A stretch of 64,000 bases of DNA from Naegleria gruberi (lineage: Eukaryota). A program made the position numbers and the translations under genes. The stretch is from NCBI GenBank assembly GCA_000004985.1, contig GG738878.1, one strand, 5' to 3'. Under the pieces are notes generated by a model that was not told where the DNA came from, searched no databases, and saw only the letters and a program-made list of their open reading frames with translations. Shown here piece by piece: positions 13,508 through 39,187 of this stretch. Every line of letters begins with the position of its first letter. Positions within the stretch are counted from its first letter, which is position 1.

Positions 13508-13786
13508 TGTATTTGTTGATATAATTTTTTTTAAAAACTAACTGGTTATATTTAGTAGGTAGTTTTTATTCGAAAGTTCATAACCATAGAACAATGAACT
13601 TCAAGTTACAATTCAATTAATTTCTCAGTTTTCAAAACATCAAATGTTATTTCAATTTTGGTCGCATCTAAACGAAACCCAGAACGAAATTCGAAATTCT
13701 ATTGAGAGAATAAATAAATATTAAAAAATTCAACAATAGTTTCAGATAACAACAATTTGAATTTATCCTTTAGTATTTGAATTGAT

Positions 13787-15121
13787 TTATCCTGAAGCAC
13801 CCTTCAAACCACTTTCCAAATGATCAGCTTCACGATTTCTTCTAGTAGAATATTTATCACCAAAGTTTCTCAAATTATTAACCATTCCCTTATAATCATT
13901 CTTAGTCAATTGACCAAAAAATCCAGGAGTGGCCTTCTTAATACTTCCATATTGATGTTGGACACTGTAAGCAACTGATTGGACAGATGATGGCAAATCC
14001 TTGAAATTCTTGACAGCATTTGGATTTTTGGCAGCAGCTGCTTCATAATCTTTGGCCAAGGAGGCAAGTGACTTGTCCATAACTGCCTTATCAATGGCTT
14101 TAGCTTCAGCAGGTGATAGGGATAATGGATTCTTTGATAGGAAATTCTTGGCAGCTTGTTGTTTCAAACCAGTATATGGAGAAAGTTTATCGACTAAACT
14201 AGGTGAAAGTCCAAGAGATTTCAAACCCTTAACATTTTGTTGTCCAATATCGAAACCAGTACCAACAGTAACACCTGATTTACCAACGACAGTACCTGAC
14301 TTGGATTGTGGAACGTAACCCTTAGTAGAGAATGCTTCATTCTTAGTAAGTAAACCCTTATCAATCTTGTAACCAGAAACAGTTGCAACAGAAGCAGCAG
14401 CAGGTTGTTGAGCTAGAGCTCTATTTTTGACAGATGTTTGAATGGCAGCAGCTGTCAACTTTCCAGTGACTGCAGGTTGAGCAGCAAAAGCAGCATTAAA
14501 ACGAGCAGTTAATGAATTGACACGTGGACCCTTAACATTCACAGCAGCAGCCTTAGCCATAGCAGAGAATGCCTTTGCCATATTTGGACCAACTAATCCA
14601 GTAAATGCCTTACTCAATGTAGGACTAACTTTTGAGAATTTACTGGTAATTGAGTTGGCTAATTTGGAAAGAGAAGCACGAGCTTGAGCTGCTTTGAGAC
14701 CTGCAGTACGAGTTCTACCTGCCATTCTACCTGCAAGACCCTTATTTGATTTGGTTGATTTGGAAGATGGTCCAGATCGTCCAGTTTTACCTGATGATCT
14801 ACCATTGGATTTACCACCACTGGATCTTCCATTGGATCTACCTGATCTACCTGATCTACCTGATTGACCACTGGATCTTCCACCTCTGGAACCTCCTCTG
14901 CTACCAGAGCTACCTCCACGGCTACCACCACCTCTGGAACCACCAGAACCTCCACGACCACCACCAGAACCACCGCCACCGCCACCGCCACTGGAACCAC
15001 CCTTGTAAGAATCTGCCAATTCGACAATTTCTGCCAAGAAGGAAGAGGATGCGGAAACTGCAATGATGGACACGGAAAGAATGGCCAAACAACACAAGAT
15101 TGTGAATGAGAGTTTCTTCAT
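13787..15121 (-). CDS. secreted protein with a cationic Gly/Ser/Arg low-complexity region plus a C-terminal phage-type lysozyme-like domain (paralog of 24377..25678)
   Basis: The ORF is 444 aa. The signal peptide is MKKLSFTILCCLAILSVSIIAVSA, followed by the conserved SFLAEIVELADS. Next come (GGS/GGR)n and (SGRS)n runs. The C-terminal ~190 aa are about 75% identical to the 24377 gene and carry E-G...GVTVGTGFDIG, ...LPSSVQSVAYSVQHQYG and ...YSTRRNREADHLESG. These resemble the GH24 catalytic-Glu/TIGxG, fAL.sfaFN.G and RR.aE motifs. Confidence 0.6.
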   Translation of the reverse strand: MKKLSFTILCCLAILSVSIIAVSASSSFLAEIVELADSYKGGSSGGGGGGGSGGGRGGSGGSRGGGSRGGSSGSRGGSRGGRSSGQSGRSGRSGRSNGRSSGGKSNGRSSGKTGRSGPSSKSTKSNKGLAGRMAGRTRTAGLKAAQARASLSKLANSITSKFSKVSPTLSKAFTGLVGPNMAKAFSAMAKAAAVNVKGPRVNSLTARFNAAFAAQPAVTGKLTAAAIQTSVKNRALAQQPAAASVATVSGYKIDKGLLTKNEAFSTKGYVPQSKSGTVVGKSGVTVGTGFDIGQQNVKGLKSLGLSPSLVDKLSPYTGLKQQAAKNFLSKNPLSLSPAEAKAIDKAVMDKSLASLAKDYEAAAAKNPNAVKNFKDLPSSVQSVAYSVQHQYGSIKKATPGFFGQLTKNDYKGMVNNLRNFGDKYSTRRNREADHLESGLKGASG

Positions 15122-15941
15122 TTCGTTTCGAATATTTTTTTTTAGATGATGAAAGAGTAACTAAATGTTTTTGAGAGTGGATTATTTTGCTGTTTGGTGG
15201 TTACTATAATGTACTCGCAGATTCCTTATTTGGATATTTTTGATTTGAAAGATAAAGTAAGATAATCAATACCGATTACAAAAAGTGAAAGATTACAATT
15301 GTAAAATATTGTAAATTGGGAGAAGGTGGAATAATTTCATTAAGATTTGTTTTATTGAGATTTTTTCAAGATATTTGTAATTTTTATTGTAAAGTGTGAA
15401 ACTGTAGTGAGTTTAGTTTTCTGGATTAGAAATGAAAATTTGAAATAATGCAATGTTTCATCCATATTTATATTGTTTATTCGAAATTTATTCTCCTTGA
15501 AACTGAAAATTATTCAAAGAAACAAAGTCATGAAACTAATCCAAACTGTAAATTGAAACTGTAAATAATTGACAAATATTACAAAAGCATCTCATATCGT
15601 ATAATTCTTCAGTGATGAGGGTTGATAACATGACGACTGCAGAATGCTGCAATTTTCCAATGGTTTGCTTTGGAAATGTCATTTTTATTCGAAACCAGCG
15701 CTTTTATGGACAAAAATGGAAAGAAACATATTTGCTTGTTGATTCATATGTTATTGGCAATGAGAGGAATACAGTCCTATCAAGAATTAGTTTCGTCCAT
15801 CTTTCGAATAACTAGGCTCAAAGATGACCGATATAAAGTGAGACTAATGCGAATTAATACGCCAATGAAAGAAACCATGTTTAAATGTACGATTCTTCAT
15901 ATTGAGATGCCCAATTCATATCAATTCACTCAACAAAAAGA

Positions 15942-16931
15942 ATGTCATCATCACTATTCGAAACCTCATCTGAAATGAAACATTCTTCCACTTTCCAACA
16001 AGAAGATTCCCAACACAACAACATGTACTATCTAAACAATACCTCAAAGACAATCCAAGAAGAACAACCTGAGGTTTTCAAATATTGGAAACATGTCAAG
16101 ATTCTTCTCAAGAACATTTTTATCCTAATCTACTTTTTCTCATCGAGTTTAATAACAAAAATTGTTACCATGTACATGGCCATTCCAAATGTTAAGATTT
16201 CTCAAGCACCTGCTCACGACATTCTTCTTTCCAACTTGACGAAACCTATTCGAATCGCCTTTACTTTATCAGAAACTATCACTGGCTTACTCGTTGTTAT
16301 TCTCATCACCTTGTCAATATTTAACAAAACTCATCGATTCTCCATCATGAGTAGGTTGCTATTCATCGTGGCGAGTATCATGAATTTGAGAGCTGTTTGT
16401 ATTGCTGTTACAACTTTCAGCGTTCCAACAATCGAATATTTGCAAACTTGTGGTCAATTGCAATCGTTGAAACCAGACGAAAGGTTTGTGAGGGCTGTTA
16501 ATATTTTTGGGTTTAGTGGAGGAGAAACGTGTGGAGATTATGTTTTTTCAGGGCATGCAACTTCGTTGAGTGTGGTTTGTTGGTTTGTTTGGTATTATTC
16601 GAATAAGGAATGGGTTGGAAGAATCTGGACGAATCTCTTGCTGATTATTTTGCATATTGTTGGATGTTTGGGAATATTGTTGGCCAAAGAACATTACACA
16701 GTTGATGTTTTACTTGCTTGCACTATTTCTCTTCTGGTTTGTCAATTGTATCATTCGTATTTGAAAGTTGCTTCGCTTGAACCACATTCGAAAGGTTTAT
16801 TCTTTTCAGTAATGGAATTTGACTTGAGTGAAGAAACTGAAAATGTGTTCGACAGCTCGATATTTGGTTATCTTTACGAAAAAATTGATGGAAACAAAAC
16901 TAATTTCGATCTAATCTCAGACAATGTATAA
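15942..16931 (+). CDS. sphingomyelin-synthase-like / PAP2-superfamily lipid phosphotransferase (SMS/IPC-synthase family)
   Basis: The ORF is 329 aa and multi-pass. SMS motifs are present: D3 as CGDYVFSGHATS and D4 as HYTVDVLLACTISLLVCQLYHSY. Additional 5' exons in 15600..15940 cannot be excluded. Confidence 0.7.
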   Translation: MSSSLFETSSEMKHSSTFQQEDSQHNNMYYLNNTSKTIQEEQPEVFKYWKHVKILLKNIFILIYFFSSSLITKIVTMYMAIPNVKISQAPAHDILLSNLTKPIRIAFTLSETITGLLVVILITLSIFNKTHRFSIMSRLLFIVASIMNLRAVCIAVTTFSVPTIEYLQTCGQLQSLKPDERFVRAVNIFGFSGGETCGDYVFSGHATSLSVVCWFVWYYSNKEWVGRIWTNLLLIILHIVGCLGILLAKEHYTVDVLLACTISLLVCQLYHSYLKVASLEPHSKGLFFSVMEFDLSEETENVFDSSIFGYLYEKIDGNKTNFDLISDNV

Positions 16932-16970
16932 TACTAAACTCATTTCTAATAAAATTTATCACTAGGTTTA

Positions 16971-19720
16971 TTAAACTTTCACCTCATCAAGCTCTTGATT
17001 CTTTGCAATTGAAGATGATTTCACATTCGCATACGAAAAATCTGATTTCTGCGTAACTTTCAAATAAACTTCTTCCAAAGTTGTTTGAGAAATTCCCCAA
17101 TCTTTAATTCCTAAAGTTGAATTTTCCAAATCTGAGATTAAATCCGATAATTCTGCAAGTTGCTGCTTGGGAATGTTAAAGATAAAGTTTCCAGCACTTT
17201 CGCTTACAATATTTACATTCGAAATTCGAGAGTTGACCATTGAAATAACATGTTGCTCGTGTCCAGTGTTGGCCACAACCATGAGATTGTAACCACTTCC
17301 ATATTGGGCTTTGATTGAAAGTGAATTTCCAACACATTTCAGTTGACCATGAGCCATGATAGCAATCTTGTCAGATAAATAATCGGCTTCGTCCATGGCA
17401 TGTGTGGTAAGAATCATGGCTCTTCCTTCTTTCATTTTGTGAATTAAATTCCATGCTTTCTTTCTTGAATATGGATCCTAATGAGGTGAATAAAGAAAAC
17501 TAAAGTTGTGAATAAACTTACCAAACCAGTGGTTGGCTCATCTAAGAGAACCAACTTTGGATTACCAATACAAGCAATACAAATGGATAATCTTCTCTTC
17601 ATACCACCTGAATAAGTCTTTGTCAAGTGATGGCCAACTTTTGACAAGTCAACCGATTCCAAAAAGTTGCTAACTTGTTCAGTTCTTTGTTTTCTTGGAA
17701 CTCCTTTCAAATCTCCAAACAATTCCAAATGCTCCTCAGCTGTCAAATCGTCCCACAAAATATCATGTTGTGGACACATTCCCAATTGCTTTCGAATATC
17801 TTCCATCGAATCTCTCACATTCAATCCAGCAATGAAAGCTTCACCAGATGATTGCTGGAACAGCCCAGTCAAAATATTCATTGTGGTTGATTTACCAGCT
17901 CCATTATGGCCCAACAAACTAACACATTGATTATCTTGCACAATTAAATTCAAACCTTTGAGAGCTTTCTTCTCAGAGAAGAATTTTCTAAATTTGGCGG
18001 GAAGAATTTTCAAAGCAATTTTGGCCAAGAATGAAGAAAATGTTCTTCTCAGTGAGATGATTCTGACAATGGCATTCTGATTGAAATCACGTGCCTTGGA
18101 AAACTCATTCTTTATATCTTGAGTTTCCATTTGATGCATATCAGTTTCGTCATTTGCATCAAGTTTCGACTTGGATTTCCATCTATTAATTCCCCAATAC
18201 GAAGGATATAAGAAGAAAATTGGTGACTTTCTAACACCATTTCCATCAGAAATTACATTATCACAATACCAATACAAGACGAGAAACAATAACCCATTAA
18301 GGAAAAGTGTTAAAATTCCCAACCACGAACCAGGAACATAATCGTAAGTGTTCTTTCCAATAAATAAATCTTCGATTGTGTAACCTGGACCAGTAACGTA
18401 CTTTCTTTGTGTGGAATCGTAAACTGGCAATGCTTTTACAGCAATGTCAATGAAAACCTTGGCAAAGTTGAAAGGTGGATAGAAGGAGAAGATTACAACT
18501 ATGAGAGGAGTGATGGAAGAGGAATAGAGCATGTAGACAATGTTACTATTCGAAACTGTCAAGTTCAAAATCTGAATCATGTTAATTTGAATGTGATGTT
18601 AATGAATAGTACTTACAAAGGAAATTGCCAAAACTGTAAATCCCAAAACTAGAGCAGATTTCGATTCCTTGATAAAAGTTGATAATAGGAAAGCTAAACA
18701 AATCAAGGAAAATGTGAAACTAAAGAATAATACATAAAGAACAATAAAGTCAGTATTCAAAAAGATTGAAATTTGAAAGATCATGCCACCAATCACATTG
18801 ACCAATGAGAAAACGGCACAGATAATCAAGAATGTAATGAACCATGATAGGAAATAGGCAGATTCTTTCATTCCCATCATAATCATGGCAAATCTTAGAC
18901 GAAACTCCTTCTCAACAACCAAACTATTCAATGAAATAATCAAGACAATCATGGCTCCAATACTAAAGAAGGTTGGTCCTGAATAATTGTACAATAAAAC
19001 TTCTCCATTCTTACTTTGAGGAGGTTGTGGAAAACTCTTAAAGTCAACCTGAATTGAATTTCTAGAATCAGCAAGTTCTTGAGTTCTGCCCAAATCTTTC
19101 ATTCTCAAATAAACAATGTTATTGTCAATTAGATTTTGTAAGGAGAGGAGTGGAGTTTTCAAATCCTCTCTAGTTCTATTATAGTACATGGTATATGAAA
19201 TGGTATCAATGGTATCTAGTGGACCATTTGGAATGAATGAAATACCAAACATGGTTTGATTTTGATGAGTGTACATCCAATTTTCCATCTCACTTTTGGT
19301 TGTAAACATTTTGTAATCAGTGTCTTGTTTCAAATTGTAATCAGAAATTAACAATTCCATTACCTTCTCTCCAAATGAAATACCATTAGCAGAATAAACT
19401 AATTTGTAACAAGCTCTTCCACCATTCGGTTTGCATTCGTAAAATTTTAAAGCAATTCCATTGTCATACGATTGTTGAGTTGGCACTTGAATTCCCTTAT
19501 GAATTAGCTCAATTGGCTGATGAATTGCACTCTCACCTGAAAAGTTAGCTTGCAAAACCTCCTTCATGACCACCAAAATCACCAAAATAATAATGGGAGA
19601 CAGCAATTGCATTCCAGTAGATTTCCATCTTCTTGTATAGAGCAGGAAATTCTTCTTTAACAAAATGAGCGTTTGTTTCAACACCTCCAACAGATAATTC
19701 ATAATAATAGTATTGAACAA
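16971..19720 (-). CDS. ABCA-subfamily ABC half-transporter (TMD-NBD), about 887 aa; three exons, approximately join(18617..19720, 17522..18571, 16971..17477)
   Basis: The N-terminus LKQTLILLKKNFLLYTRRWKSTGMQLLSPIIIL matches the ABCA leader. ABC-2 type TM helices follow. Walker A is GHNGAGKST. The signature/Walker B is [32 protein letters not shown]. After the splice comes PYSRKKAWNLIHKMKEGRAMILTTHAMDEAD. Minus-strand intron 1 is TTT|GTAAGT..ATTCAG| (45 nt). Intron 2 is GGTTTG|GTAAGT..CATTAG|GATCC (44 nt). Both joins are phase-consistent. Confidence 0.8.
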
Positions 19721-20004
19721 GAAAGTGTTGTTGAGACTTTTTTCTAATTGAGAGAGGAAGCATATGTTTCATTGGCACACGATTTTGAATGAGCTGTGAT
19801 TCGTAGGTGCGAACTTGTGGCAGTTAGCTGAGCTGTAAATTAGTTGGAGGTGAGAAGATCCTCCTTTTCAAACAATGTTAGAGAACGGAGAGTGCGATTG
19901 GAAGAGTCTGTTTGAACTTGTTGATAAGGGAGAAGCGAATTTGTTATTATTGTTTTTCATTAATCATTAAAAAACAAAAGTAAATCTCCAACCAATTAGA
20001 TCAT

Positions 20005-23000
20005 ATGAAAGAAACAAAGATTTTGGATGAGAATAGTGGTGGTGCTACTGCTACTACTACTGGCCAATCAGTGACAACTCCCATCGATTGTGATGATTTG
20101 TTAATGAAGAGTCGTGCTGGTAAGGAGTTGAATCAAGTGAGAGCATTGTTGTACAAATCATTGATGTTGCAAATGAAGCAATACAAGTAGGTTATTTCAT
20201 TGTTAATATTAGTATTCATGTATATTGTATTTTGTTCAACAAATACAGGTCAAATATTTGTCAATTGATATTCCCAGTCATTTGTTTAATGTTCATTTAC
20301 GTTTTACAAATAGTTGCAAATAGATTGATTGCAGGATTCTTTACAGGCAATGAGGGAGCTGCAGCAGTTGTTAGAATCAACTCTACATCTGTTGAACTTT
20401 CTCAACTCATGTATCAAGCAAAGATGCAAGCTCAAAACTTGACATTTAATCCTCCAGAGTCCCTCTTTTTCACCTCTGATAAGAATGACTATTTGAATAG
20501 TATTGGATTTGGTACCATGTCCTCTAATCAGTCTGGATCTAGTGGTTTCTTGGCTAATTTTTCTCCATGGTCCAGAAGTTCAGTCATGATGTTAGTGAAT
20601 GGTACCTTTGATGAGAAGGGAATGATTTCAATTCCATACTCTGTAACCTCTGCTTTTGGTAATGAAAGTACTATGGATGAAGTCATCTATGATAGAATGG
20701 GTGCTGTGGGAAAACTGAAAACTTGGATGCTGTTGGTGCCTATATTGTAAGAAAGTTGGACACCTCTGGTATCAATTACACTGTACAATTTGATTACCAT
20801 GAAAAGACTCAATTCTTTGCTGAATTCCTCTCAAAATCACCACTCACCTATATTGTTACAAGTGCTAGAGATGCTATTAGTGTTTCTCTTCAGAATTGGA
20901 TGAATGATGCCTTCCTGAAAAATCTTACTGGCTCTTTCAGAATTAGAACCTATACAGCTCAAATGACCTATGATACTCAATTAATTTCCTTCAGACTTTC
21001 TGACATGTTAGGTTCCTTCTTCTTTCCACTAATTCTTTCTCTATTATTACCAACATTTACCTTTACCATTGTTATGGAGAAGCAATACAAGTTGAGAGAA
21101 ATGATGAAATTGATGGGTATGAAGATGAGATATTACTTTTTGGTAACTTATGTATTTTTCTATGCAATGTATGCCCTCTCTGCTATTTTGTTCATCATCT
21201 TTTCTATTGCCTTTGATTTTAGATTTATAACCCAGACACATCCATTAATGTTAAGTAAGTATTCATTGCTTTTTCACATATATTTAACCAGGATACTTTA
21301 GTTTTCTTCTTCCTGTTGTGGGGAAATGTATTGATTAGTTTTTCATTCCTATTATCTTCGTTCATTGGTAAGACAATTGTAGCTACTATTGTTTCCTACT
21401 TGTTTGTTCTGATTGGACCAATGGTTGGTGTCCTTCTTGAACAAGCTCTCTATCCAAGTGCACCAGATGCAAGATATGGTCTCCTCTTATTGTTCCCTCT
21501 CCAAATTACTCACTTTGTCTTTGCTGCAACCAATTCATGTAATAACAATGCATGTTTGACAGATGTGGCTGATATTGTAAATAATGTATCTGTCCTCAGC
21601 TCACTTCTTTACATGTTGGGAGTTTCAGTGTTGTACTTCATATTGGGTCTGTACTTTGATGCCATTATTCCACAAACATTTGGTATAAGTAAACATCCAT
21701 TGTTCTTCCTGGAGTGGATGTGGAGGCCGTGTATTAAACGTCGTCTGAAGAGAGCTAAAAAGCACACTGAAAGTAAGAATCAAGTCCAACCATTTGGAGA
21801 TGAAGAAGGTGCTATTGATTACAATACCTCCGAAGTAATGGACAGTGATGTAGCTGAGGAGTTTAACAAGGTTAATCCAAGTAATATCACAGACAATGAA
21901 ATGCAAGAGCATGCTAGAAAATTGAAGGAAGAGCATGGTGTTGTCCTTTTCAATTTGGAAAAGAGTTTTGGAGGTAATAAGGCTGTTAAAGGTACCTGTC
22001 TCACTATTGGCAAATCTGAATGCTTTGGTTTGCTAGGTCTTAATGGAGCTGGTAAATCAACAACCATCTCAATGTTAGCAGGAATGTTTGGTCCAAGTTC
22101 TGGAACTGCATTTGTGTGCGGTAAAGATATTAGATATGACATGGACAGTATCCATCAAGTAATGGGCTTGACAGCACAATTTGATATTTTGTATCCTGAT
22201 TTGAGTTGTGAAGACCATTTACTCTTCTATTCCAGAATGAAGGGTGTGAAAATCAAGCACGAGAAGGAACACGTCCAATCTCTATTAAAACAAGTAGGTC
22301 TAGATAATGAAACTCTCAAAGTGAGATTCTCTCCAGCATCCAGCTCACTTTCAGGAGGTATGAAGAGAAGATTATCCATTGCCATTTCACTAATTGGTGA
22401 TCCGAAAGTAATCCTACTCGATGAGCCAACCACTGGACTGGATCCACTCTCCAAGAGACACTTGTGGGATATCATTCTCGCTCAAAAGAAGAATAGAACT
22501 GTCATTTTGACCACTCACTCCATGGAAGAAGCTGATGCCTTATGTGATCGAATGACCATCATGGTAAAAGGTTCTTTCAAATGCTTAGGTTCTGGTTTAA
22601 GATTGAAAAACAAGTTCGGAGATGGCTATTTGATGACCATCAGTTACCAACCAGAGAACCAAAACATTGCCGAGAAGTATGTCTACGATTACGTACCAGA
22701 GGCTGTGAAGGATCTGACTCTGAGTGGCATAACCATCTTCAAAATACCTCACCTTAATGCTCCTCATTCTCATCAAATAACAACAACAACAACAACAAAT
22801 CAAAACAGCAGCATAAGCCATAATAATAATAGTAGTGGGGAAAAGAATAGAACATTGGCTGGTTTGTTTAAACATATGGAAAGTGGAAAGGATCATCACG
22901 GAATTGAAGAGTGGGCTTTAAATCAAGTTTCATTAGAACAAGTCTTTTTGAATATAATTTCGAGTGATGCAAAGAGAAATCCATTGAAGGATGAATCCAA

Positions 23001-23043
23001 GTGGAAGCGATTAGCAACCATGTTCAAGCAATGTATCCATTGA
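20005..23043 (+). CDS. ABCA-subfamily ABC half-transporter (TMD-NBD), about 960 aa; four exons, approximately join(20005..20186, 20249..20705, 20756..21254, 21302..23043)
   Basis: It has an ABCA-type N-terminus and TMD. Walker A is GLLGLNGAGKST. The signature/Walker B is [33 protein letters not shown]. The H-loop is TTHSMEEAD. A poly-T/N insert follows (QITTTTTTNQNSS). Introns are AA|GTAGGT..ATACAG| (62 nt) and TTAA|GTAAGT..CTTTAG| (47 nt). The middle intron (GTGGGA..GAAAG, about 50 nt) is the only phase-compatible solution but has a weak donor. Confidence 0.75.
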
Positions 23044-23305
23044 GAGACCATTCTGTGCACTGTGTAAATAATAAAATTGTGCTCATCACATGATGTATTT
23101 TATTTTAAAAAATAATTTTAATTAAAAAATGGAAATTTGGATTGGCGAATACTCCATCTTACATGGTGGTTGTAAAAACTATATCACAATATTATTACAA
23201 TGACATGGCACAATGTCCAATTTGCTTCCATTTTCACAAATCATATTTTATGCTTTTTCCGGTTGGCTTCCAATCAAACTCTAAAAAAAAAAATAACAAG
23301 ACAAT

Positions 23306-24136
23306 ATGAAGCAAACCTTTTTCATTTTGGTTGTTGCTTTGATATTAGCCTTCGTAGGAGGTTTGGTCAGCGCCGATGTGATCGATCACACCAATAGAAT
23401 TCTCCCAGCGACTACTCCATATCATATGGGTATTTTACATACTTTTGATCCATTTACTTCATCATGGTCCTTTTATTGTAATAGACCAGGTGCCGGACCT
23501 GGAACAAACGATCAATTGGGTATTGTTGTTAATATGGGAAGTGATATTAGAATAATTGGTCCTAAAGTGTATAATGATGATAGTAATTTCCAAGTTGGTA
23601 TTCAAGGGGGAGAGACTGGCAAGATTATTGATTTGGGTACTGAAGATGATGTCAGCAAAACTTATGGTTGTTCAAACTGTTTTACTGGTATTAAATTTAG
23701 TAGTGATGGAGTTGTTTCAGTTTTAGATAAGACAAAGAATTTGAAGCCAATTGACCTTACTGCCATGACAGTGGATCATGCTTCAATTAAAGTAGGTCAT
23801 ATTTACTTGGTCAAGATTAGCAATGGAAATGATGATACTGCTCTTTTTGTAAAGTTTATTGCTACCTCAGTTCTTTATGGAGCAAACAATGCTGTGGAAA
23901 CTGTAACAATGAGACATCAACCAATGTATGTTAAAATTTCACAATCAACTGGAAGAGATTGCTCAGGTCATGTAGATCTTAATTCTGTTGTGGCTCAAGC
24001 TGAAACTGGAATTAGTTTGGCTGTTATTGGATTGGTGGCTACCATTTTCATTGGTGTTGGAAATGTTGCCTTCTTAATTTATTATTTTGCATTTGCAAAG
24101 GGAAAGAGAGGTGGTGTTTATGGAACTCTCCAATAA
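23306..24136 (+). CDS. hypothetical secreted/type I membrane protein
   Basis: The ORF is 276 aa. It has an N-terminal signal peptide (MKQTFFILVVALILAFVGGLVSA), a Cys-containing ectodomain and a C-terminal TM (GISLAVIGLVATIFIGVGNVAFLIYYFAF) with a short basic tail. No family recognised. Confidence 0.4.
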   Translation: MKQTFFILVVALILAFVGGLVSADVIDHTNRILPATTPYHMGILHTFDPFTSSWSFYCNRPGAGPGTNDQLGIVVNMGSDIRIIGPKVYNDDSNFQVGIQGGETGKIIDLGTEDDVSKTYGCSNCFTGIKFSSDGVVSVLDKTKNLKPIDLTAMTVDHASIKVGHIYLVKISNGNDDTALFVKFIATSVLYGANNAVETVTMRHQPMYVKISQSTGRDCSGHVDLNSVVAQAETGISLAVIGLVATIFIGVGNVAFLIYYFAFAKGKRGGVYGTLQ

Positions 24137-24376
24137 CTCAATAATAATAACATTCGAATGCTTTTAATATTTCTTATTTCACCATTTTGTAATAGTGTTG
24201 GGTATCATTATTATAATCTGATTCCAATACATTATCTTGGAACATGTTAAAATACAAGAACTCATATTTCTGTCAAATTTCATTATAATCTCCACACGAT
24301 TGCAATCATTGAATGATTTTGTATGGTTTAATTTTAGCCAACTGACATCTCCAGTTAACTCATCATTCAAAAAAAT

Positions 24377-25678
24377 ATGAAAACATCTCTCTTGGTTTTA
24401 TGCACCTTGATGGTACTCTGTGTATCCATTATGGCTGTGTCTGGCTCCTTCTTGGAACAAATTGTGGAAATGTCACTTTCTGATTCTAGAAGTTTCAAGT
24501 CGGGTGGTGGTAGCTCTGGAGGAGGTAGCAAATCTGGAAGCAGTAGCAGCAGCTCTGGAAAGTCATCCAGTAAGTCATCCTCATCCTCCAGTAAGAGTAC
24601 TAGCTCTAGTAAAACCTCCACTTCAAAGAGTTATAGCAAGTCAACTGTCTCATCAAAGATGGCCTCAGCTTATTCTCAATATGCTAACAGTAGAATTGCT
24701 GGTATGAAGAATCCAGCCAGCACCATGGCTGGTCTCAAAGCTGCCAATTTGAATGCTCGTTTAAGTGCTCAACCAACTGCTACTGTCAATGGTAAATTGA
24801 CTGCTGCTGGTATCAAGGCCTCTTATCAAAATCGATTGAATACAAGAGTTGCTGCTGCCTATCAACAATATGCTCAATCCAGAATGGCTGCTGCCAAACC
24901 AACTGCTAAGCCAACCAATATTGCTGCAGCTTATCAACAATACGCCCAATCTAGAATTGCTGGTATGAAGAATCCTGCTAGCACTTTGTCTAAACCAACT
25001 GCCAAACCTGCCAATATTGCTGCTGCCTATCAACAATATGCTCAGTCCAGAATTGCTGGTTTGAAGAATCCTGCCAGTACTCTCCCAGGTAGTTTCAAGA
25101 TTGATAAGGGTTTGCTTACTGTTAATGAAGGTAAACCTGCCACTACTGGTTACGTTCCACAATCCAAGGCAGGTACTGTCATTGGTAAATCAGGTGTTAC
25201 TGTTGGTACTGGATTCGATGTTGGTCAACAAAATGTTAAGGGTTTGAAAGCTCTTGGACTTTCACCAAGTTTAGTCGACAAGCTTTCTCCATACACTGGA
25301 TTGAAGCAACAAGCAGCTAAGGACTTTTTGGCTAAGAATCCATTGTCCCTATCGCCTGCTGAAGTTGCATCCATTGATAAGGCAGTTATGGACAAGTTTT
25401 CTGCCAATTTGGCCAAAGATTATGCAGCTGCTGCTGCCAAGAATCCAACTGCTGTCAAGAATTTCAAGGATTTGCCAGCTCCTGTCCAATCAGTTGCTTA
25501 CAGTGTCTACCATCAATATGGAAGCTTCTCCAAGACTCCAAGCTTCATGAACAAGTTGGCCACCAATGATTACAATGGAATGGTTCATGAATTGAGAAAC
25601 TTTGGTGATTCTTACTCAACAAGAAGAAATCGTGAAGCTGATCATTTGGAAAGTGGTTTGAAGGCTGCTTCAGGATAA
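24377..25678 (+). CDS. secreted protein with a Ser/Lys-rich low-complexity region, AAYQQYAQSRIAGMKNPAST repeats and a C-terminal phage-type lysozyme-like domain (paralog of 13787..15121)
   Basis: The ORF is 433 aa. The signal peptide is MKTSLLVLCTLMVLCVSIMAVSG, followed by SFLEQIVEMSLSDS. A (S/K)n tract follows. Three copies of a ~22-aa AAYQQYAQSR(I/M)AG(M/L)KNPAST repeat come next. The conserved C-terminal domain (FKIDKGLLTVNEG...GVTVGTGFDVGQQ...YSTRRNREADHLESGLKAASG) is shared with the 13787 gene. Confidence 0.6.
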   Translation: MKTSLLVLCTLMVLCVSIMAVSGSFLEQIVEMSLSDSRSFKSGGGSSGGGSKSGSSSSSSGKSSSKSSSSSSKSTSSSKTSTSKSYSKSTVSSKMASAYSQYANSRIAGMKNPASTMAGLKAANLNARLSAQPTATVNGKLTAAGIKASYQNRLNTRVAAAYQQYAQSRMAAAKPTAKPTNIAAAYQQYAQSRIAGMKNPASTLSKPTAKPANIAAAYQQYAQSRIAGLKNPASTLPGSFKIDKGLLTVNEGKPATTGYVPQSKAGTVIGKSGVTVGTGFDVGQQNVKGLKALGLSPSLVDKLSPYTGLKQQAAKDFLAKNPLSLSPAEVASIDKAVMDKFSANLAKDYAAAAAKNPTAVKNFKDLPAPVQSVAYSVYHQYGSFSKTPSFMNKLATNDYNGMVHELRNFGDSYSTRRNREADHLESGLKAASG

Positions 25679-25774
25679 ATAAATTCTAATGTTGTTGCCA
25701 TCTCTGAACATACTGGAATATTGTCTCAAGTTTTGAATGCCTAGATTATATATTTGAGAATTATCTTGGAATAG

Positions 25775-27906: not shown

Positions 27907-29226
27907 ATGAAGGAAATTATTCCCCTCTGTTTTGGACAATGTGGTATCAATATTGGCTCTGATTTTATTCAACAAATCTACAGGGAACATTTTTTCCCTT
28001 CCAAATCTTCATCCTCATCAATTCATGATCGGAATGCTAATTATAATGAAAATGATGAATTGATGATGAATACAATGAGAGGAGAAGCCTCTATTTACTT
28101 TTCCGAATCATCCAATAGTACATTCACCTCTCGGGGTCTTTTAATTGATTTACAAAGCCAATTTAAATATCAATCTAAATTGTTGAATAATGATGAAATA
28201 CAAAATACAATTGATTTGAATAATAATGTAATATTTCCAAGACAGAATGGTGTGTATTGCTCTCCAGATTGGCCAGGTGGTAAATATGAATCCGGAGCTG
28301 ATTTATTTACCAATGATGTGATGGATCGAGTGAGGAAATTATTGGAGGATTGTGATTCGTTTCATGGATTTCAGTTTTTTCATGGGATGGTTGGATCTTC
28401 GAGTGGTTTCTACTCGAGAATTTGTGCACATTTGAGAGAGGAGTATCCTGATAAGATGTTTTGGTCATGTAGTGTATTTCATGATTCCAAGAGTGAGGAT
28501 AAAGCAGTGTGGATGTATGATTCCATATTGACCTTTCAGTACATGATGGAGCTCAATGATATGATTACCTGTGTGAGGAATAGTGAGCTAATTGATAAAT
28601 GTGTACAGAATGGAAAGGATTATCCAACTTATAGAGATTATAATAATGTGATTAGAAGCTTCTTTCCAAACATTACATCAGTTTTTAGGTATCCTTCTCA
28701 ACAAGGATGTGATTTGAGGAAAATGTGTCTCAATCTTGCACCTACCAGACACTGCTTGATTGAAGTTAGTGAAACTACTGCTTTACAAAATGAGACAACA
28801 CCTATTTATGAAACAATTTATAATTTGAATAGTCAATTGATTCAACAAAAGAGTTCAGAGAAGATCCTTTCTGCCATTTCAATATTGAGAGCTAGTGGAA
28901 CATTGGGCTTGGAAGCAGAAAGAAACCTTCGGAAATCAGTCAAAGATCATTCACAATCAGAATTTCCATTCAAACCCCTTGTTGTGAATCAACAATCAAG
29001 CGATAACACGATCAGCAATACATTGCTTACCAACTCTTCATCAATTACCACGGCTCTGGAAAATATTTATGAAGTAACAGAAAGATTTTTCAGAAGGAAA
29101 ACTTTCATTTATGGATACACAAGAGGAGGATTAGAGGAAATGGAAATTACTGAATCTCAGTATTATCTTCGAGAGGCTATTGATACTTATACAGAGAGCG
29201 AACCTAAAGAAGATGAACTTGCTTAA
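27907..29226 (+). CDS. highly divergent tubulin-superfamily protein with a degenerate GTP-binding signature
   Basis: The ORF is 439 aa. The N-terminus MKEIIPLCFGQCGINIGSDFIQQIYREHF aligns with tubulin MREI..GQCGNQIG..FW. The segment HGFQFFHGMVGSSSGFYSRICAHLREEYPDKM aligns with tubulin [32 protein letters not shown], but the glycine loop is GMVGSSSG rather than GGGTGSG. The rest is strongly diverged. Confidence 0.6.
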   Translation: MKEIIPLCFGQCGINIGSDFIQQIYREHFFPSKSSSSSIHDRNANYNENDELMMNTMRGEASIYFSESSNSTFTSRGLLIDLQSQFKYQSKLLNNDEIQNTIDLNNNVIFPRQNGVYCSPDWPGGKYESGADLFTNDVMDRVRKLLEDCDSFHGFQFFHGMVGSSSGFYSRICAHLREEYPDKMFWSCSVFHDSKSEDKAVWMYDSILTFQYMMELNDMITCVRNSELIDKCVQNGKDYPTYRDYNNVIRSFFPNITSVFRYPSQQGCDLRKMCLNLAPTRHCLIEVSETTALQNETTPIYETIYNLNSQLIQQKSSEKILSAISILRASGTLGLEAERNLRKSVKDHSQSEFPFKPLVVNQQSSDNTISNTLLTNSSSITTALENIYEVTERFFRRKTFIYGYTRGGLEEMEITESQYYLREAIDTYTESEPKEDELA

Positions 29227-32807: not shown

Positions 32808-34406
32808 ATGATGTCAAATAATACAGTGACAGTTGGCAACTCAACAATTTGCCATGAATTTCTGTTTAATACAACATCGAGCAGAGAAATTCTACCTTCA
32901 ATTGAATATGATATCTGTCCTGATACCTACATTTCGTTTTGTAAGTTTCCCACAATCTCTACAATTGTGAATCCTAAACCAAACTAAACCTGTATTCGAA
33001 ACAATACAATAGCCATACTGTTGGCCTTTCTCACTGGATACATTCTACTTCTCCTCATCACTACCATTCTTGTCATATGGAAACGAAACTCTGGACATAT
33101 CCTTGCTCGTGATCCAGCTCAGTTAATCTTAACCATGTTGACAGGATTTCAATTTGTGGCCATTTTCTCACTTCGAATAATTATTGGAAGAAAGATCTTT
33201 CCATGTGCCCTGTATTCATATTGTTTCTTTGTTGTGGGGCCTGTAATTTGTCTTCCTTCCATATGTAGAAGTTTAAAATTATATTTCCATTTCAAGTTAA
33301 ATCTTCAGAAAATGAAATTCTTCAAGGAAAGTGAAACTCCAGACGATTCTTCATCTGTATTTTCAAGTTCTGATTCCATGTCTCATAATTCAGTGAAACA
33401 GAAATTACCAAATTTGAGAGTTTTGAAATTTTATCAATTTATGGTTAGCCACAAATTTATTATTGCAACCTATATCGGAGTTTTTATTATTCAAACCGCA
33501 ATATGGGCTATCGTTGGTGGAATTGATGAGATTTTATATTCACTCAATACGGATTTACAAAATAGGAAAAGGTTTTTTGTGAGTCCAGGATTTTTTGAAT
33601 TTAAAATTGGATGCAGTTTGACAAGTGGAATTTTAATTGTAATCTTGATTGAGTCAGTGTTTTATATTGCAGCTGAGGTGATTACATTGATAATGTGTAT
33701 TAGATCTGATAGAGATACTTGGTCAATTAAGAAGGAAACTTTGATTTATGTCATTGTTCAATCAATTGGAATTTCTCTATTTGTCATTTCATCATTTATT
33801 GATATCATGTCAATATTGGTTGATTATTTCGTACCATATGCCTTGTTCATGTTTGGAGCTCTTGCTTTGGAAACTATCATTTGTGTGCTACTTCCTGTGT
33901 GTTATGCTATTAGAAAGGATTTCCACTCAACACATCACAATCCACAAGATAGCACTCTGGAAAGTATTTTGAAAAACAAGAAGGGATTCAAAACAATTCT
34001 CGATTTTGCTCGTAGATCCTATTGTCCAGAAGCAGTTCTCTGTTGGTCTGATATTCAGAGATTTAAGGATTGTAAGAAACGTGAGAAAAAGCTTGAAATT
34101 GCCAAGTATATTATTGAGCATTATTTGACACCTTCCAGTTATTTAGAGTTAAATATGCCACAATTGGCAAATGTCAAGGAGGAATTAAGTTTGATGGTGA
34201 TGGGTTCAGCAAGTACAGTTTCTAATGATGTATTCGATATGATTGAGAATCATTGTTTGCAGGATTTGGCTGATTTACAGCATAGATTGGTGAGCAGTGA
34301 TAAATTTATCGCATCAATGGTGCAAGAATTGAAGGAATTACAAAGATTGAAAGCAAGCTGTGAAGAGAAGGTAGAAGAAACTTTCAATGTTGAATTGGAA
34401 ATTTAA
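32808..34406 (+). CDS. seven-transmembrane protein with a C-terminal RGS domain (7TM-RGS); two exons join(32808..32940, 33013..34406)
   Basis: Exon 1 is MMSNNTVTVGNSTICHEFLFNTTSS... with NxS/T sequons, typical of an extracellular GPCR N-terminus. It ends TTT T|GTAAGT. The acceptor CAATAG|CC restores the frame. Exon 2 encodes about 7 hydrophobic helices and then an RGS-like domain (KTILDFARRSYCPEAVLCWSDIQRFKD..AKYIIEHYLTPSSYLELNMPQ), followed by a coiled-coil tail. Confidence 0.6.
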
Positions 34407-36709
34407 AACTGTGACAAGTTGATGATTATTCCTCGCATTAGCTTGTCCGGTAATTTCTCAATCCTTGCATAATCAGTGAAGAGGAGTTTTTTGTTTGAGA
34501 CTCCAAAGTTGACCAGTTCATTAAGAATATTCTCAAATAAAGGGCAATTTAAATAATTTTCAAAACTTGATGCAAGATCAAAGTAATTATCAATTGTAAT
34601 TATCAGCGTACTTTTAAAATAATCAACAAAATAATGAATTTCATGAATGATTGCCATATCAATTAATGTAAAAAGTTTTGATGGATCTATCTCGTAAACT
34701 GGAATTCCATAACAATATTTGATGATAATTTCTAATAATTCCAAATCCATTGAATCATCAGGTGTAAAGACATCATCACTAAGATCACTGAATGATGATC
34801 CACTTTCGAATAATGCATTAAAAAATGTACTTTTGGAACTGAGTATTGTTTTGTGGCAGTATAAATACTTGTCTTGTCCCATTTTGATTTTAACGTCGCT
34901 TGCTTTTTCATTATTAAATAATCTTTCAATTCCCTGTTGTTCAATTTCATTATCCTCCTGTATTTCAATTGGACTTGTAACATGTGTTTCCATTACAGAT
35001 AAAATGTTAAAGCTATATCTCTTAATGATGGGATAAGACAAAAGTGTTTTTCCTGTAAGAGACTTTAACTGGATGGCAGAATATTCCAAACAATAATTGT
35101 TCAAATATTCAAGTAAATGATTTTGAATTTCTATTTCTTCATGACAAAGTTTGAGTAAATTATCAACTTGTTCCCATTTTGAAGGAAGTGTTTCCAGTGT
35201 GATGGAATTAATAAATCCATGTACAAATGCTCTTTTAAAATCGATAAATTCACAATTCTTGAACATTCCTAAAATGAATAATACATTCAATATATCATAT
35301 TCTCTAAATGAATTCAATCTTTCAATCTCTGTAAATTGATATATATTTTCATATATCAATGAATCAATTAGTTTTTGTATAATTACTATTTGTTGCGAAT
35401 TCATTGATTTCAATAGTTTTTCATTTTTCAATATTATTTTACAAAATTGTGGTGATAACTTTTCTATTAATGGAATAAATCCAATCAATTCCAATCCAAA
35501 TAATTCATCTCTTGAATGTTTTTTCAATTGGATTTTTGGAATTATAGTATAATCATTTCCAATATGTGGATGCGATGAAAAATCAAATGGTGAATCACCT
35601 CCAAATCCTTCTTCACCATTTCCAGCAATTGTTTTAATTGTTCCATTTCTTAATATTTTTCTAATTCTATGATTTTCTGTATCAGCAATATAAACTTCAT
35701 CATTTCGAGAAACGAATATATTGTCTACATATGATATTTGTGCATTAATTGCAAGTCCTCCATCACCACTATATCCTTTAACTCCAGTTCCTGCAATTGT
35801 TGTAATATTGGCATTTCTTAATATTTTTCTAATTCTATAATTTCCACTATTCATAATATAAACTTCATTCGTTGATGAAACAAATACACCACATGGATGG
35901 TTAACTTGTGCATTAATTGCAGGACCACCATCACCACTGAATCCTTCTTCTCCAGTTCCTGCAATTGTATTAATAATTCCATTTCTTAATATTTTTCTAA
36001 TTCGATGATTGTTGTAATCTACAATATAAACTTCATCGTTATTAGAAACAAAAACACCACAAGGGCTGTCTAATTGTGCACTTGTTGCAGGGCCACCATC
36101 TCCACTAAATCCTTTTTCTCCAGTTCCTGCAATTGTTACAATAGTTCCATTTCTCAATATCTTTCTAATTCTATGATTTCCAAAATCAGAAAAATAAATT
36201 TCATCATTTTGAGAAACGAATATATTCTGTACATATGATATTTGTGCATTAATTGCAGGTCTACCATCACCACTATATCCTTTTTCTCCAGTTCCTGCAA
36301 TTGTTACAATATTGCCATTTCTTAATATTTTTCTAATTCTATAATTTCCACTATCAGCAAAAAAAACTTCATTCGTTGATGAAACAAATACACTACATGG
36401 ATGGCTCAATTGTGCACTTGTTGCAGGATCACCGTCACCACTAAATCCTTCTTCTCCAGTTCCTGCGATGGTGACTATAGTTCCATCTTTTAATATTTTT
36501 CTCACCCTATGATTTTGGCAATCTGCCATATAAACCTCATCATTCGGAGCAACAAACACTCCTCCCGGACAATTTAACATTGCTTTAGTGGCTAATTTTT
36601 TATTCATCATTTTAGCCTTTTTCTTTACTTTATTTTCGTCATTTTCATCATTTTCTGATGATGAAGAAGCCGATGATGATGCGGATGAAGAACAAAGGCT
36701 TCGTTTCAT
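34403..36709 (-). CDS. NHL-repeat beta-propeller protein with a C-terminal BTB/POZ domain (paralog A)
   Basis: About 769 aa from MKRSL at 36709. The ORF-track start at 36733 is an upstream in-frame TTG. It has at least 7 NHL-type repeats (..HRIRKILRNGTIVTIAGTGEEGFSGDGGPA..AQL..PCGVFVS..DEVY.AD..N). A helical middle region follows. The C-terminal BTB is DVKIKMGQDKYLYCHKTILSSKSTFFNALFESGSSFSDLSDDVFTPDDSMDLELLEIIIKYCYG. Its stop codon overlaps the stop of the convergent 7TM-RGS gene. Confidence 0.7.
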   Translation of the reverse strand: MKRSLCSSSASSSASSSSENDENDENKVKKKAKMMNKKLATKAMLNCPGGVFVAPNDEVYMADCQNHRVRKILKDGTIVTIAGTGEEGFSGDGDPATSAQLSHPCSVFVSSTNEVFFADSGNYRIRKILRNGNIVTIAGTGEKGYSGDGRPAINAQISYVQNIFVSQNDEIYFSDFGNHRIRKILRNGTIVTIAGTGEKGFSGDGGPATSAQLDSPCGVFVSNNDEVYIVDYNNHRIRKILRNGIINTIAGTGEEGFSGDGGPAINAQVNHPCGVFVSSTNEVYIMNSGNYRIRKILRNANITTIAGTGVKGYSGDGGLAINAQISYVDNIFVSRNDEVYIADTENHRIRKILRNGTIKTIAGNGEEGFGGDSPFDFSSHPHIGNDYTIIPKIQLKKHSRDELFGLELIGFIPLIEKLSPQFCKIILKNEKLLKSMNSQQIVIIQKLIDSLIYENIYQFTEIERLNSFREYDILNVLFILGMFKNCEFIDFKRAFVHGFINSITLETLPSKWEQVDNLLKLCHEEIEIQNHLLEYLNNYCLEYSAIQLKSLTGKTLLSYPIIKRYSFNILSVMETHVTSPIEIQEDNEIEQQGIERLFNNEKASDVKIKMGQDKYLYCHKTILSSKSTFFNALFESGSSFSDLSDDVFTPDDSMDLELLEIIIKYCYGIPVYEIDPSKLFTLIDMAIIHEIHYFVDYFKSTLIITIDNYFDLASSFENYLNCPLFENILNELVNFGVSNKKLLFTDYARIEKLPDKLMRGIIINLSQF

Positions 36710-36752
36710 TTTTTTTGTAAAAAAAATCTTCAAATGAAAAGATCAAGTCAAC

Positions 36753-39187
36753 NNNNNNNNNNNNNNNNNNNNNNNNNNNNNNNNNNNNNNNNNNNNNNNN
36801 NNNNNNNNNNNNNNNNNNNNNNNNNNNNNNNNNNNNNNNNNNNNNNNNNNNNNNNNNNNNNNNNNNNNNNNNNNNNNNNNNNNNNNNNNNNNNNNNNNNN
36901 NNNNNNNNNNNNNNNNNNNNNNNNNNNNNNNNNNNNNNNNNNNNNNNNNNNNNNNNNNNNNNNNNNNNNNNNNNNNNNNNNNNNNNNNNNNNNNNNNNNN
37001 NNNNNNNNNNNNNNNNNNNNNNNNNNNNNNNNNNNNNNNNNNNNNNNNNNNNNNNNNNNNNNNNNNNNNNNNNNNNNNNNNNNNNNNNNNNNNNNNNNNN
37101 NNNNNNNNNNNNNNNNNNNNNNNNNNNNNNNNNNNNNNNNNNNNNNNNNNNNNNNNNNNNNNNNNNNNNNNNNNNNNNNNNNNNNNNNNNNNNNNNNNNN
37201 NNNNNNNNNNNNNNNNNNNNNNNNNNNNNNNNNNNNNNNNNNNNNNNNNNNNNNNNNNNNNNNNNNNNNNNNNNNNNNNNNNNNNNNNNNNNNNNNNNNN
37301 NNNNNNNNNNNNNNNNNNNNNNNNNNNNNNNNNNNNNNNNNNNNNNNNNNNNNNNNNNNNNNNNNNNNNNNNNNNNNNNNNNNNNNNNNNNNNNNNNNNN
37401 NNNNNNNNNNNNNNNNNNNNNNNNNNNNNNNNNNNNNNNNNNNNNNNNNNNNNNNNNNNNNNNNNNNNNNNNNNNNNNNNNNNNNNNNNNNNNNNNNNNN
37501 NNNNNNNNNNNNNNNNNNNNNNNNNNNNNNNNNNNNNNNNNNNNNNNNNNNNNNNNNNNNNNNNNNNNNNNNNNNNNNNNNNNNNNNNNNNNNNNNNNNN
37601 NNNNNNNNNNNNNNNNNNNNNNNNNNNNNNNNNNNNNNNNNNNNNNNNNNNNNNNNNNNNNNNNNNNNNNNNNNNNNNNNNNNNNNNNNNNNNNNNNNNN
37701 NNNNNNNNNNNNNNNNNNNNNNNNNNNNNNNNNNNNNNNNNNNNNNNNNNNNNNNNNNNNNNNNNNNNNNNNNNNNNNNNNNNNNNNNNNNNNNNNNNNN
37801 NNNNNNNNNNNNNNNNNNNNNNNNNNNNNNNNNNNNNNNNNNNNNNNNNNNNNNNNNNNNNNNNNNNNNNNNNNNNNNNNNNNNNNNNNNNNNNNNNNNN
37901 NNNNNNNNNNNNNNNNNNNNNNNNNNNNNNNNNNNNNNNNNNNNNNNNNNNNNNNNNNNNNNNNNNNNNNNNNNNNNNNNNNNNNNNNNNNNNNNNNNNN
38001 NNNNNNNNNNNNNNNNNNNNNNNNNNNNNNNNNNNNNNNNNNNNNNNNNNNNNNNNNNNNNNNNNNNNNNNNNNNNNNNNNNNNNNNNNNNNNNNNNNNN
38101 NNNNNNNNNNNNNNNNNNNNNNNNNNNNNNNNNNNNNNNNNNNNNNNNNNNNNNNNNNNNNNNNNNNNNNNNNNNNNNNNNNNNNNNNNNNNNNNNNNNN
38201 NNNNNNNNNNNNNNNNNNNNNNNNNNNNNNNNNNNNNNNNNNNNNNNNNNNNNNNNNNNNNNNNNNNNNNNNNNNNNNNNNNNNNNNNNNNNNNNNNNNN
38301 NNNNNNNNNNNNNNNNNNNNNNNNNNNNNNNNNNNNNNNNNNNNNNNNNNNNNNNNNNNNNNNNNNNNNNNNNNNNNNNNNNNNNNNNNNNNNNNNNNNN
38401 NNNNNNNNNNNNNNNNNNNNNNNNNNNNNNNNNNNNNNNNNNNNNNNNNNNNNNNNNNNNNNNNNNNNNNNNNNNNNNNNNNNNNNNNNNNNNNNNNNNN
38501 NNNNNNNNNNNNNNNNNNNNNNNNNNNNNNNNNNNNNNNNNNNNNNNNNNNNNNNNNNNNNNNNNNNNNNNNNNNNNNNNNNNNNNNNNNNNNNNNNNNN
38601 NNNNNNNNNNNNNNNNNNNNNNNNNNNNNNNNNNNNNNNNNNNNNNNNNNNNNNNNNNNNNNNNNNNNNNNNNNNNNNNNNNNNNNNNNNNNNNNNNNNN
38701 NNNNNNNNNNNNNNNNNNNNNNNNNNNNNNNNNNNNNNNNNNNNNNNNNNNNNNNNNNNNNNNNNNNNNNNNNNNNNNNNNNNNNNNNNNNNNNNNNNNN
38801 NNNNNNNNNNNNNNNNNNNNNNNNNNNNNNNNNNNNNNNNNNNNNNNNNNNNNNNNNNNNNNNNNNNNNNNNNNNNNNNNNNNNNNNNNNNNNNNNNNNN
38901 NNNNNNNNNNNNNNNNNNNNNNNNNNNNNNNNNNNNNNNNNNNNNNNNNNNNNNNNNNNNNNNNNNNNNNNNNNNNNNNNNNNNNNNNNNNNNNNNNNNN
39001 NNNNNNNNNNNNNNNNNNNNNNNNNNNNNNNNNNNNNNNNNNNNNNNNNNNNNNNNNNNNNNNNNNNNNNNNNNNNNNNNNNNNNNNNNNNNNNNNNNNN
39101 NNNNNNNNNNNNNNNNNNNNNNNNNNNNNNNNNNNNNNNNNNNNNNNNNNNNNNNNNNNNNNNNNNNNNNNNNNNNNNNNNNNNNNN
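36753..39187. other. assembly gap (N-run, 2435 nt)
   Basis: A continuous run of n characters. ORF-track entries that cross it (X-stretch ORFs) are artifacts. Confidence 1.

Follow-up and report, generated by a model that had tools for sequence, protein, structure and literature searches.

The 64,000-nucleotide stretch of Naegleria gruberi DNA analysed here (the window; contig GG738878.1 of assembly GCA_000004985.1) contains two genes, hereafter A and B, whose products combine a C-terminal pesticin-type domain with a long cationic N-terminal half. Gene A (positions 13787..15121, minus strand) was an intact, single-exon open reading frame (ORF) of 444 amino acids (aa), and gene B (24377..25678, plus strand) was an intact ORF of 433 aa. 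The product of gene A was 100% identical to the 'pesticin domain protein' of N. gruberi NEG-M (XP_002675482.1 / EFC42738.1 / D2VKR0). Gene B corresponded to the 'pesticin domain-containing protein' of the same strain (XP_002675382.1 / EFC42638.1 / D2VKR5), for which the database model has 422 aa and covers residues 12–433. A dictyostelid origin, suggested by the GC content, was rejected on account of the exact matches to the NEG-M records. A first-pass annotation, made from the nucleotide sequence without database searches, had described the two genes as inverted paralogs of a bacterivorous amoeba. Both points held: the proteins were 65% identical over 268 aa (BLASTP, E 1e-108), and the host is a heterolobosean amoeboflagellate. 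The C-terminal domains (residues 251–444 of A and 240–433 of B) shared 81% aa identity and 84% DNA identity in a global alignment of approximately 193 codons; they thus aligned as noted before, slightly more closely than the approximately 75% estimated by eye. At the DNA level, the pair was visible as three inverted repeats approximately 10.8 kb apart, at 13944–14326 / 25142–25524 (383 nt, 88% identity), 13775–13909 / 25556–25690 (135 nt, 87% identity) and 14335–14373 / 25092–25130 (39 nt, 87% identity). No further copy was detected when all six frames of the window were searched for the motifs. The shared architecture was also as first described, with a signal-peptide-like N-terminus, the motif SFL(A/E)(E/Q)IVE(L/M) (SFLAEIVEL in A, SFLEQIVEM in B), a cationic tract and a C-terminal domain of approximately 195 aa. 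The quoted domain motifs, among them GVTVGTGFD(I/V)G, VQSVAYSV.HQYG and YSTRRNREADHLESG, were present in both proteins.

The C-terminal domains (A, 13790..14371, minus strand; B, 25094..25675, plus strand) matched the Pfam family PF16754 (Pesticin) with 236.7 bits (E 1.3e-70) for A and 231.1 bits (E 7.2e-69) for B, compared to a cut-off of 25.8 bits. Residues 252–411 of A and 241–400 of B covered the complete model (1–156 of 156). No NCBIfam family matched, and neither protein matched PF00959 (Phage_lysozyme) even at E≤10. In a phmmer search of the Protein Data Bank (PDB), the only hit was Yersinia pestis pesticin (Pst; E 2.5e-14, over Pst residues 178–347). An AlphaFold2 model of A residues 245–444, based on an alignment of 14 sequences (A and B with 12 bacterial homologs), had a mean predicted local distance difference test score (pLDDT) of 93.1. 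When this model was compared to the PDB with Foldseek, the first eleven matches were pesticin chains, with template modelling (TM) scores of 0.78–0.82 and E values down to 6e-11. The best match was 4epf_B (query-normalized TM score, TMq, 0.81; root-mean-square deviation 2.6 Å over 192 columns). T4 lysozyme and phage endolysins followed, with TM scores of approximately 0.45–0.55 and 12–18% identity. The expectation of a lysozyme-like domain of the phage/T4 structural class was therefore confirmed, and comparison of the structure prediction with T4 lysozyme recovered a T4-lysozyme-type fold. The proposed membership in PF00959/GH24 was not: besides the missing profile match, the essential Asp follows the Thr instead of standing in the order Glu11...Asp20...Thr26. 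The similarity to T4 lysozyme and endolysins is structural only. The suggestion of a new domain family was ruled out by the PF16754 match (E 1e-70).

The activity domain of pesticin has the T4 lysozyme fold and muramidase activity, and this activity is lost in the mutants E178A, T201A and D207A (Patzer et al., PMC3390615). Among pesticin homologs, Glu178, Pro187, Thr201, Asp207 and Gln301 are strictly conserved, and Arg339 and Arg340 line the cleft (PMC3390615). All of these positions were found in the Naegleria proteins by alignment to 4aqn. The Glu of NE(A/G) corresponded to Glu178, the Pro of GYVP to Pro187, the Thr of GVT to Thr201, the Asp of GFD to Asp207, the Gln of HQYG to Gln301 and the Arg pair of STRRN to Arg339/Arg340. 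The same residues were invariant in the alignment of A, B and the 12 bacterial homologs. E262, T285 and D291 (gene A numbering) are thereby predicted to be catalytic. It had been noted earlier that the position equivalent to Asp20 of T4 lysozyme is not Asp. This is correct, but it does not indicate a defect, since in the pesticin family the essential Asp (Asp207) sits six residues after Thr201, and both paralogs retain the Asp of GTGFD. The profile, fold and residue conservation together support identification of the domain as a PF16754 pesticin activity domain, homologous to phage lysozymes and predicted to be an active muramidase.

Both N-termini had a Met-Lys n-region, a hydrophobic core of approximately 17 residues and small residues at positions −3 and −1 (AVSA|S in A, AVSG|S in B). 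Based on the hydropathy profile and the −3/−1 rule only, a signal peptide was predicted at aa 1–24 of A (15050..15121, minus strand; MKKLSFTILCCLAILSVSIIAVSA), conserved with B, and at aa 1–23 of B (24377..24445, plus strand; MKTSLLVLCTLMVLCVSIMAVSG), where the alignment with A was also used. In gene A, the signal peptide is followed at the predicted mature N-terminus by a conserved acidic motif region (15005..15049, minus strand; aa 25–39, SSSFLAEIVELADSY), delimited with the A/B alignment. From these features, we infer that both proteins enter the secretory pathway. The public model of gene B begins at Met12. An in-frame ATG at position 24377 adds MKTSLLVLCTL (24377–24409), which matches MKKLSFTILCCL of gene A and completes the predicted signal peptide. 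For this reason, the ATG at 24377 is probably the start of gene B, and the annotated start is then 33 nt (11 codons) too far downstream.

Between the acidic motif and the domain, both proteins carried an extension that was strongly basic and free of acidic residues. In gene A (14372..15004, minus strand), it consisted of a Gly/Ser/Arg tract (aa 40–128, net charge +18) and a linker rich in Ala, Lys, Ser and Thr (aa 129–250, net charge +17). Residues 40–250 contained 35 Lys and Arg and no Asp or Glu (net +35). In gene B (24491..25093, plus strand), a Ser/Lys tract (aa 39–94, net charge +9) was followed by an Ala/Gln/Lys linker (aa 95–239, net charge +17) with four AYxQYAxSR repeats, and residues 39–239 contained 26 Lys and Arg and again no Asp or Glu (net +26). 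The mature proteins had isoelectric points of 10.8 (A) and 10.1 (B), and contained neither Cys nor an N-glycosylation sequon. The acid-free cationic character was common to both paralogs; the sequences of the extensions themselves were poorly conserved (36% and 25% aa identity). No homolog of B residues 1–239 was found among 5.8 billion proteins. The full-length single-sequence AlphaFold2 model of B had a pLDDT <50 over residues 31–338 and was uninformative for the N-terminal half.

Internal repeats differed between the two extensions. Gene A had tandem repeats with 9- and 21-nt units at 14835–14864 and 14939–14986. Gene B contained four copies of a 90-nt family of direct repeats (24635..25081, plus strand), the last two of which formed a tandem with a period of 96 nt (32 aa) and 85–86% identity. 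The core of the encoded repeat, AY(S/Q)QYA(N/Q)SR(I/M)A, occurred at aa 98, 161, 185 and 217, and the tail ...RIAG(M/L)KNPAST was complete in three of the four copies. The AYxQYAxSR motif was not found in gene A. The earlier description of a 22-aa repeat with three copies, absent from gene A, was thus correct in the three full copies and in the absence from A; the unit quoted was, however, 20 aa long, and the core occurs a fourth time in a degenerate copy.

When 1.84 billion representative proteins were searched with HMMER, 1804 matches to the domain were obtained, the top two being A and B themselves. No other match exceeded 50% identity, and the next closest (41–49%) were metagenomic or bacterial. 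The nearest relatives were short proteins (180–300 aa), some of them metagenomic and others encoded by named bacteria (Agarivorans, Anabaena, Jannaschia, Marivita, Shewanella, Rheinheimera, Marinomonas and Byssovorax). The nearest bacterial relatives had the C-terminal signature NFGDKYSTRRN(K/R)EADLL in common with the Naegleria proteins. A phage protein family, phrog_24780, also matched the domain (E 8e-43). The gene for one bacterial homolog was the direct upstream neighbor of a phage terminase and a portal gene, as would fit an endolysin, and that of another was located downstream of a WXG100 gene. In Agarivorans, the homolog was accompanied by a Tox-HDC gene and a pair of DUF2589 genes; DUF2589 might be considered as a candidate for an immunity partner. 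A metagenome scan for close relatives found none. A word-indexed search returned no orthologs from other Naegleria species, but it also missed A and B themselves.

The only other eukaryotic matches among the best 150 of the 1804 were from hemichordates (Saccoglossus and Glandiceps). In a bootstrapped neighbor-joining analysis, the Naegleria domains were monophyletic in 100 of 100 replicates, as were the hemichordate domains, and the two groups were never placed together (0/100). Given this separate monophyly, Naegleria and hemichordates likely acquired the pesticin domain independently. The hemichordate proteins (XP_002740238 and XP_077870017 of Saccoglossus kowalevskii; XP_077987947 and XP_077989182 of Glandiceps talaboti) contained PF16754-type domains with the same Glu, Thr and Asp residues. 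They differed from the Naegleria proteins in having acidic linkers, Cys-rich WSC-like modules (XP_002740238) and no cationic tract. The Saccoglossus proteins each had three to four tandem pesticin domains, and a signal-peptide-like N-terminus was present in XP_002740238 but not in XP_077870017.

The bacterial and phage affinity of the domain raised the question whether the two genes could be assembly contaminants, or non-functional relics without a role in the amoeba. We consider this most improbable, and it is already largely refuted. The genes lie on a 395-kb N. gruberi scaffold between intron-containing eukaryotic genes; their neighbors include a leucine-rich repeat gene, a PAP2_C (sphingomyelin-synthase-like) gene, two intron-containing ATP-binding cassette (ABC) transporter genes and a DUF4116 gene. 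Both ORFs (433–444 aa) are intact and begin with predicted signal peptides of the eukaryotic type. The GC content at third codon positions (GC3) was 0.25–0.33 in A and B, compared to 0.24–0.36 in the neighboring genes. The ratio of nonsynonymous to synonymous substitution rates (dN/dS) between A and B was 0.34 in the catalytic domain (dS 0.37). In the region of the signal peptide and conserved motif, it was approximately 0.09, although dS was saturated there (proportion of synonymous differences 0.74) and few codons were available. Identity to the best bacterial relatives was at most 49%. The host-like GC3, the eukaryotic neighborhood, the purifying selection on the domain and the distance to bacterial relatives point to an old horizontal transfer of the domain from bacteria or phages, followed by domestication in the amoeba.

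The difference between a dS of 0.37 in the domain and the saturated dS upstream suggests gene conversion, confined to the approximately 580-bp 3′ region of the inverted copies (13790–14371 and 25094–25675). The comparison is based on few codons, and the alignment is unreliable in the low-complexity parts. Between A and B, two intron-containing ABC transporter genes (ABC_tran) are arranged head-to-head at 16971–19720 (minus strand) and 20232–23043 (plus strand). These are themselves inverted paralogs with 35% identity and short DNA inverted repeats of 73–77% identity. With an inverted ABC pair inside the inverted muramidase pair, the region from 13.8 to 25.7 kb is roughly mirror-symmetric, and its arms are of unequal age or have been unequally homogenized. 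A single recent inverted segmental duplication of ABC and muramidase genes was not supported, as the ABC genes are only 35% identical and the intervening genes differ between the arms. On one arm, the gene between the ABC and muramidase genes encodes the PAP2_C protein; on the other, it encodes an unannotated 276-aa secreted or transmembrane protein. The latter ORF (23306–24136, plus strand), immediately upstream of gene B, resembled a signal peptide at its N-terminus, had a hydrophobic segment towards the C-terminus and matched no Pfam family.

Altogether, we consider it probable that A and B are horizontally acquired, secreted, cationic-tailed muramidases of the pesticin family that were duplicated in inverted orientation and serve to lyse bacteria. 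The captured domain would have gained a eukaryotic endoplasmic reticulum signal peptide, the short acidic motif conserved between the paralogs and an extension specific to the lineage, which is polycationic, free of acidic residues and of low complexity; the gene would then have been duplicated in inverted orientation. The signal peptide would route the protein to the secretory/endolysosomal pathway and thereby to the phagosome or the cell exterior. There, the polycationic N-terminal half would bind anionic bacterial surfaces (lipopolysaccharide, teichoic acids) and may aid in crossing or destabilizing the outer membrane. The C-terminal domain would cleave the glycan strands of murein via Glu262, Thr285 and Asp291 (gene A numbering), leading to lysis of prey or competitor bacteria. 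Naegleria has no peptidoglycan, so that an immunity protein would not be needed.

Several observations weigh against this explanation. Lys341 of pesticin is replaced by Asn in both paralogs. The signal peptides were called by rule of thumb only, and the GenBank model of B, starting at Met12, would shorten that of B. The extensions differ strongly, being Gly/Arg-rich in A and Ser/Lys-rich in B, with a dN/dS of approximately 0.6–0.9 on an unreliable alignment. Finally, a hydrophobic-moment scan detected no convincing amphipathic helix in the extensions: the sole peak was an artefact of the Gly-Ser-Arg periodicity, and B was indistinguishable from shuffled sequences. Amphipathic helices resembling antimicrobial peptides were accordingly not supported, and neither is a classical pore-forming mechanism. 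The extension had originally been likened to an antimicrobial peptide; the strongly polycationic character was confirmed, whereas no amphipathic signal beyond that of the Gly-Ser-Arg periodicity was seen and the pLDDT of the AlphaFold2 model was <50.

Given how far the two extensions have diverged, they can be explained by a spacer under little constraint or by an O-glycosylated stalk of the mucin type as well as by an active targeting module. The N-terminal half might be passive, either as a flexible spacer that resembles mucin and may be O-glycosylated or as a pro-region that is removed on maturation; the activity of the muramidase would in that case be confined to the phagolysosome and to bacteria already damaged by other factors. 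The B tract is 57% Ser and gave a weak Mucin-like Pfam match (E 0.007, below the cut-off), and the poor conservation between the paralogs, the low AlphaFold2 confidence, the missing amphipathic signal and the lack of a homolog for the N-terminal half of B are all in line with a passive role. However, both paralogs independently kept a stretch of over 200 residues completely free of Asp and Glu despite saturated divergence, which suggests selection on charge and not neutral drift. We regard a passive N-terminal half as rather unlikely. A further alternative is re-purposing of the domain. It could bind or cleave a different glycan, for example a polymer of the cyst wall or one resembling chitin, or sense peptidoglycan fragments, without being bacteriolytic. 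Lysozyme-fold proteins have sometimes been re-used as binding proteins or chitinases, and the exchange of Lys341 for Asn could be read in the same way. With all essential or strictly conserved pesticin residues (Glu, Pro, Thr, Asp, Gln and the Arg pair) retained in both paralogs, the pattern is the one expected of an active muramidase, and a non-bacteriolytic function seems very unlikely.

The preferred explanation, a secreted bacteriolytic muramidase, can be compared with several known systems. Yersinia pestis pesticin (4AQN/4EPF, PF16754), an N-acetylmuramidase homologous to T4 lysozyme (PMC3390615), shares the Pfam family, the fold (TM 0.81), the catalytic residues E178/T201/D207 as well as P187, Q301 and R339/R340 with the Naegleria proteins, but is only approximately 25% identical, and the match is limited to Pst residues 178–347. 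Pesticin crosses the outer membrane by means of a TonB-box translocation domain and a FyuA receptor-binding domain; the Naegleria proteins lack these and instead carry a predicted signal peptide and a polycationic region. There was likewise no indication of a whole pesticin-type bacteriocin, as TonB and FyuA domains were not found (only Pst 178–347 aligned), the flanking genes were eukaryotic and there was no immunity gene among them. The closest relatives of the domain are stand-alone bacterial and phage muramidases similar to the pesticin C-terminus (Agarivorans AHAT_40580 and members of phrog_24780; approximately 180–300 aa, 41–49% identity). Pesticin-domain effectors of type VI secretion systems (T6SS) also exist, for example Vibrio VgrG3cp / TssI2 (PMC9927483, PMC9620997). 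Such bacterial and phage versions, acting as endolysins or interbacterial toxins, reach murein from inside the cell or with injection or secretion machinery, and do not have the signal peptide, the SFLxxIVE motif or the cationic tract.

Among eukaryotes, the same logic is seen in GH25 lysozymes and in the 'dae' amidases of ticks and other invertebrates, which derive from T6SS Tae effectors; both are horizontally acquired antibacterial genes that were domesticated by eukaryotes. As proposed for Naegleria, a bacterial or phage cell-wall hydrolase that nests in a bacterial clade resides in a eukaryotic genome, was given a signal peptide and is under purifying selection, but the enzyme family differs. 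To our knowledge, a polycationic extension has not been described for the GH25 and dae cases. A closer parallel to the extension is found in Artilysins, engineered endolysins in which an N-terminal polycationic peptide reportedly gives passage through the Gram-negative outer membrane. The Artilysin tags are designed and have approximately 9 residues, whereas the Naegleria tract is natural, of low complexity and approximately 200 residues long; the composition is alike, and a role at the outer membrane is suggested by analogy. The N-terminal half is best read, on this analogy, as a polycationic and probably disordered Artilysin-like module aimed at the bacterial surface or outer membrane. As the amoeba has neither TonB/FyuA import nor a T6SS nor a route from within, the polycationic tail would most likely concentrate the enzyme on anionic envelopes and aid its passage through the outer membrane. 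A more far-reaching version is that A and B are a natural counterpart of Artilysins. The orphan, disordered extension of approximately 200 residues would have been built de novo, would take the place of the routes by which bacterial versions are delivered (import via TonB/FyuA, injection by a T6SS and holin-endolysin release) and would allow the enzyme to breach the Gram-negative outer membrane from outside. The Gly/Arg-type and Ser/Lys-type paralogs would each be adapted to different surfaces of prey, with their catalytic halves kept alike by gene conversion. We put this version forward tentatively and regard it as possible but doubtful.

Other features of the window were located downstream of gene B. 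An ORF of 439 aa at 27907–29226 (plus strand) encoded a divergent Tubulin/FtsZ GTPase domain (PF00091, E 3e-26). A gene with NHL repeats and a BTB domain was present at 34403–36733 (minus strand), and a second NHL-repeat and BTB paralog at 41320–43686 (plus strand). The apparent GC content of 12% at 36753–39187 was due to a gap in the assembly, filled with N, and ORFs across this gap are artefacts; a biological origin of the low-GC region at 36–40 kb was consequently rejected. The gap interrupts a tandem array of 168-nt (56-aa) units that belongs to the first NHL-repeat and BTB gene (35594–36540 and 39511–40369).

The identity of the pesticin domain in both proteins is already part of their NCBI and UniProt annotation. 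Full-text literature searches (pesticin with Naegleria or Dictyostelium, and the accessions) found no papers discussing these genes, and nothing was found on dae in combination with Naegleria. In the examined parts of the supplement to the Naegleria pangenome paper, A and B were not among the lysozymes. The novel aspects are the architecture, the way its evolution is read and a mechanism that can be tested; the family itself is not new. Domestication of bacterial cell-wall hydrolases by eukaryotes is a known general phenomenon, and it is the idea of a natural Artilysin and the parallel acquisition in hemichordates that merit follow-up. If the Naegleria proteins are active, pesticin-type muramidases would be a third enzyme class among the bacterial cell-wall weapons domesticated by eukaryotes, and the same domain would have been captured twice independently, once in a heterolobosean amoeba and once in hemichordates. 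The two proteins would also represent a naturally evolved fusion of a polycation and a lysin, a design that is now engineered against Gram-negative pathogens.

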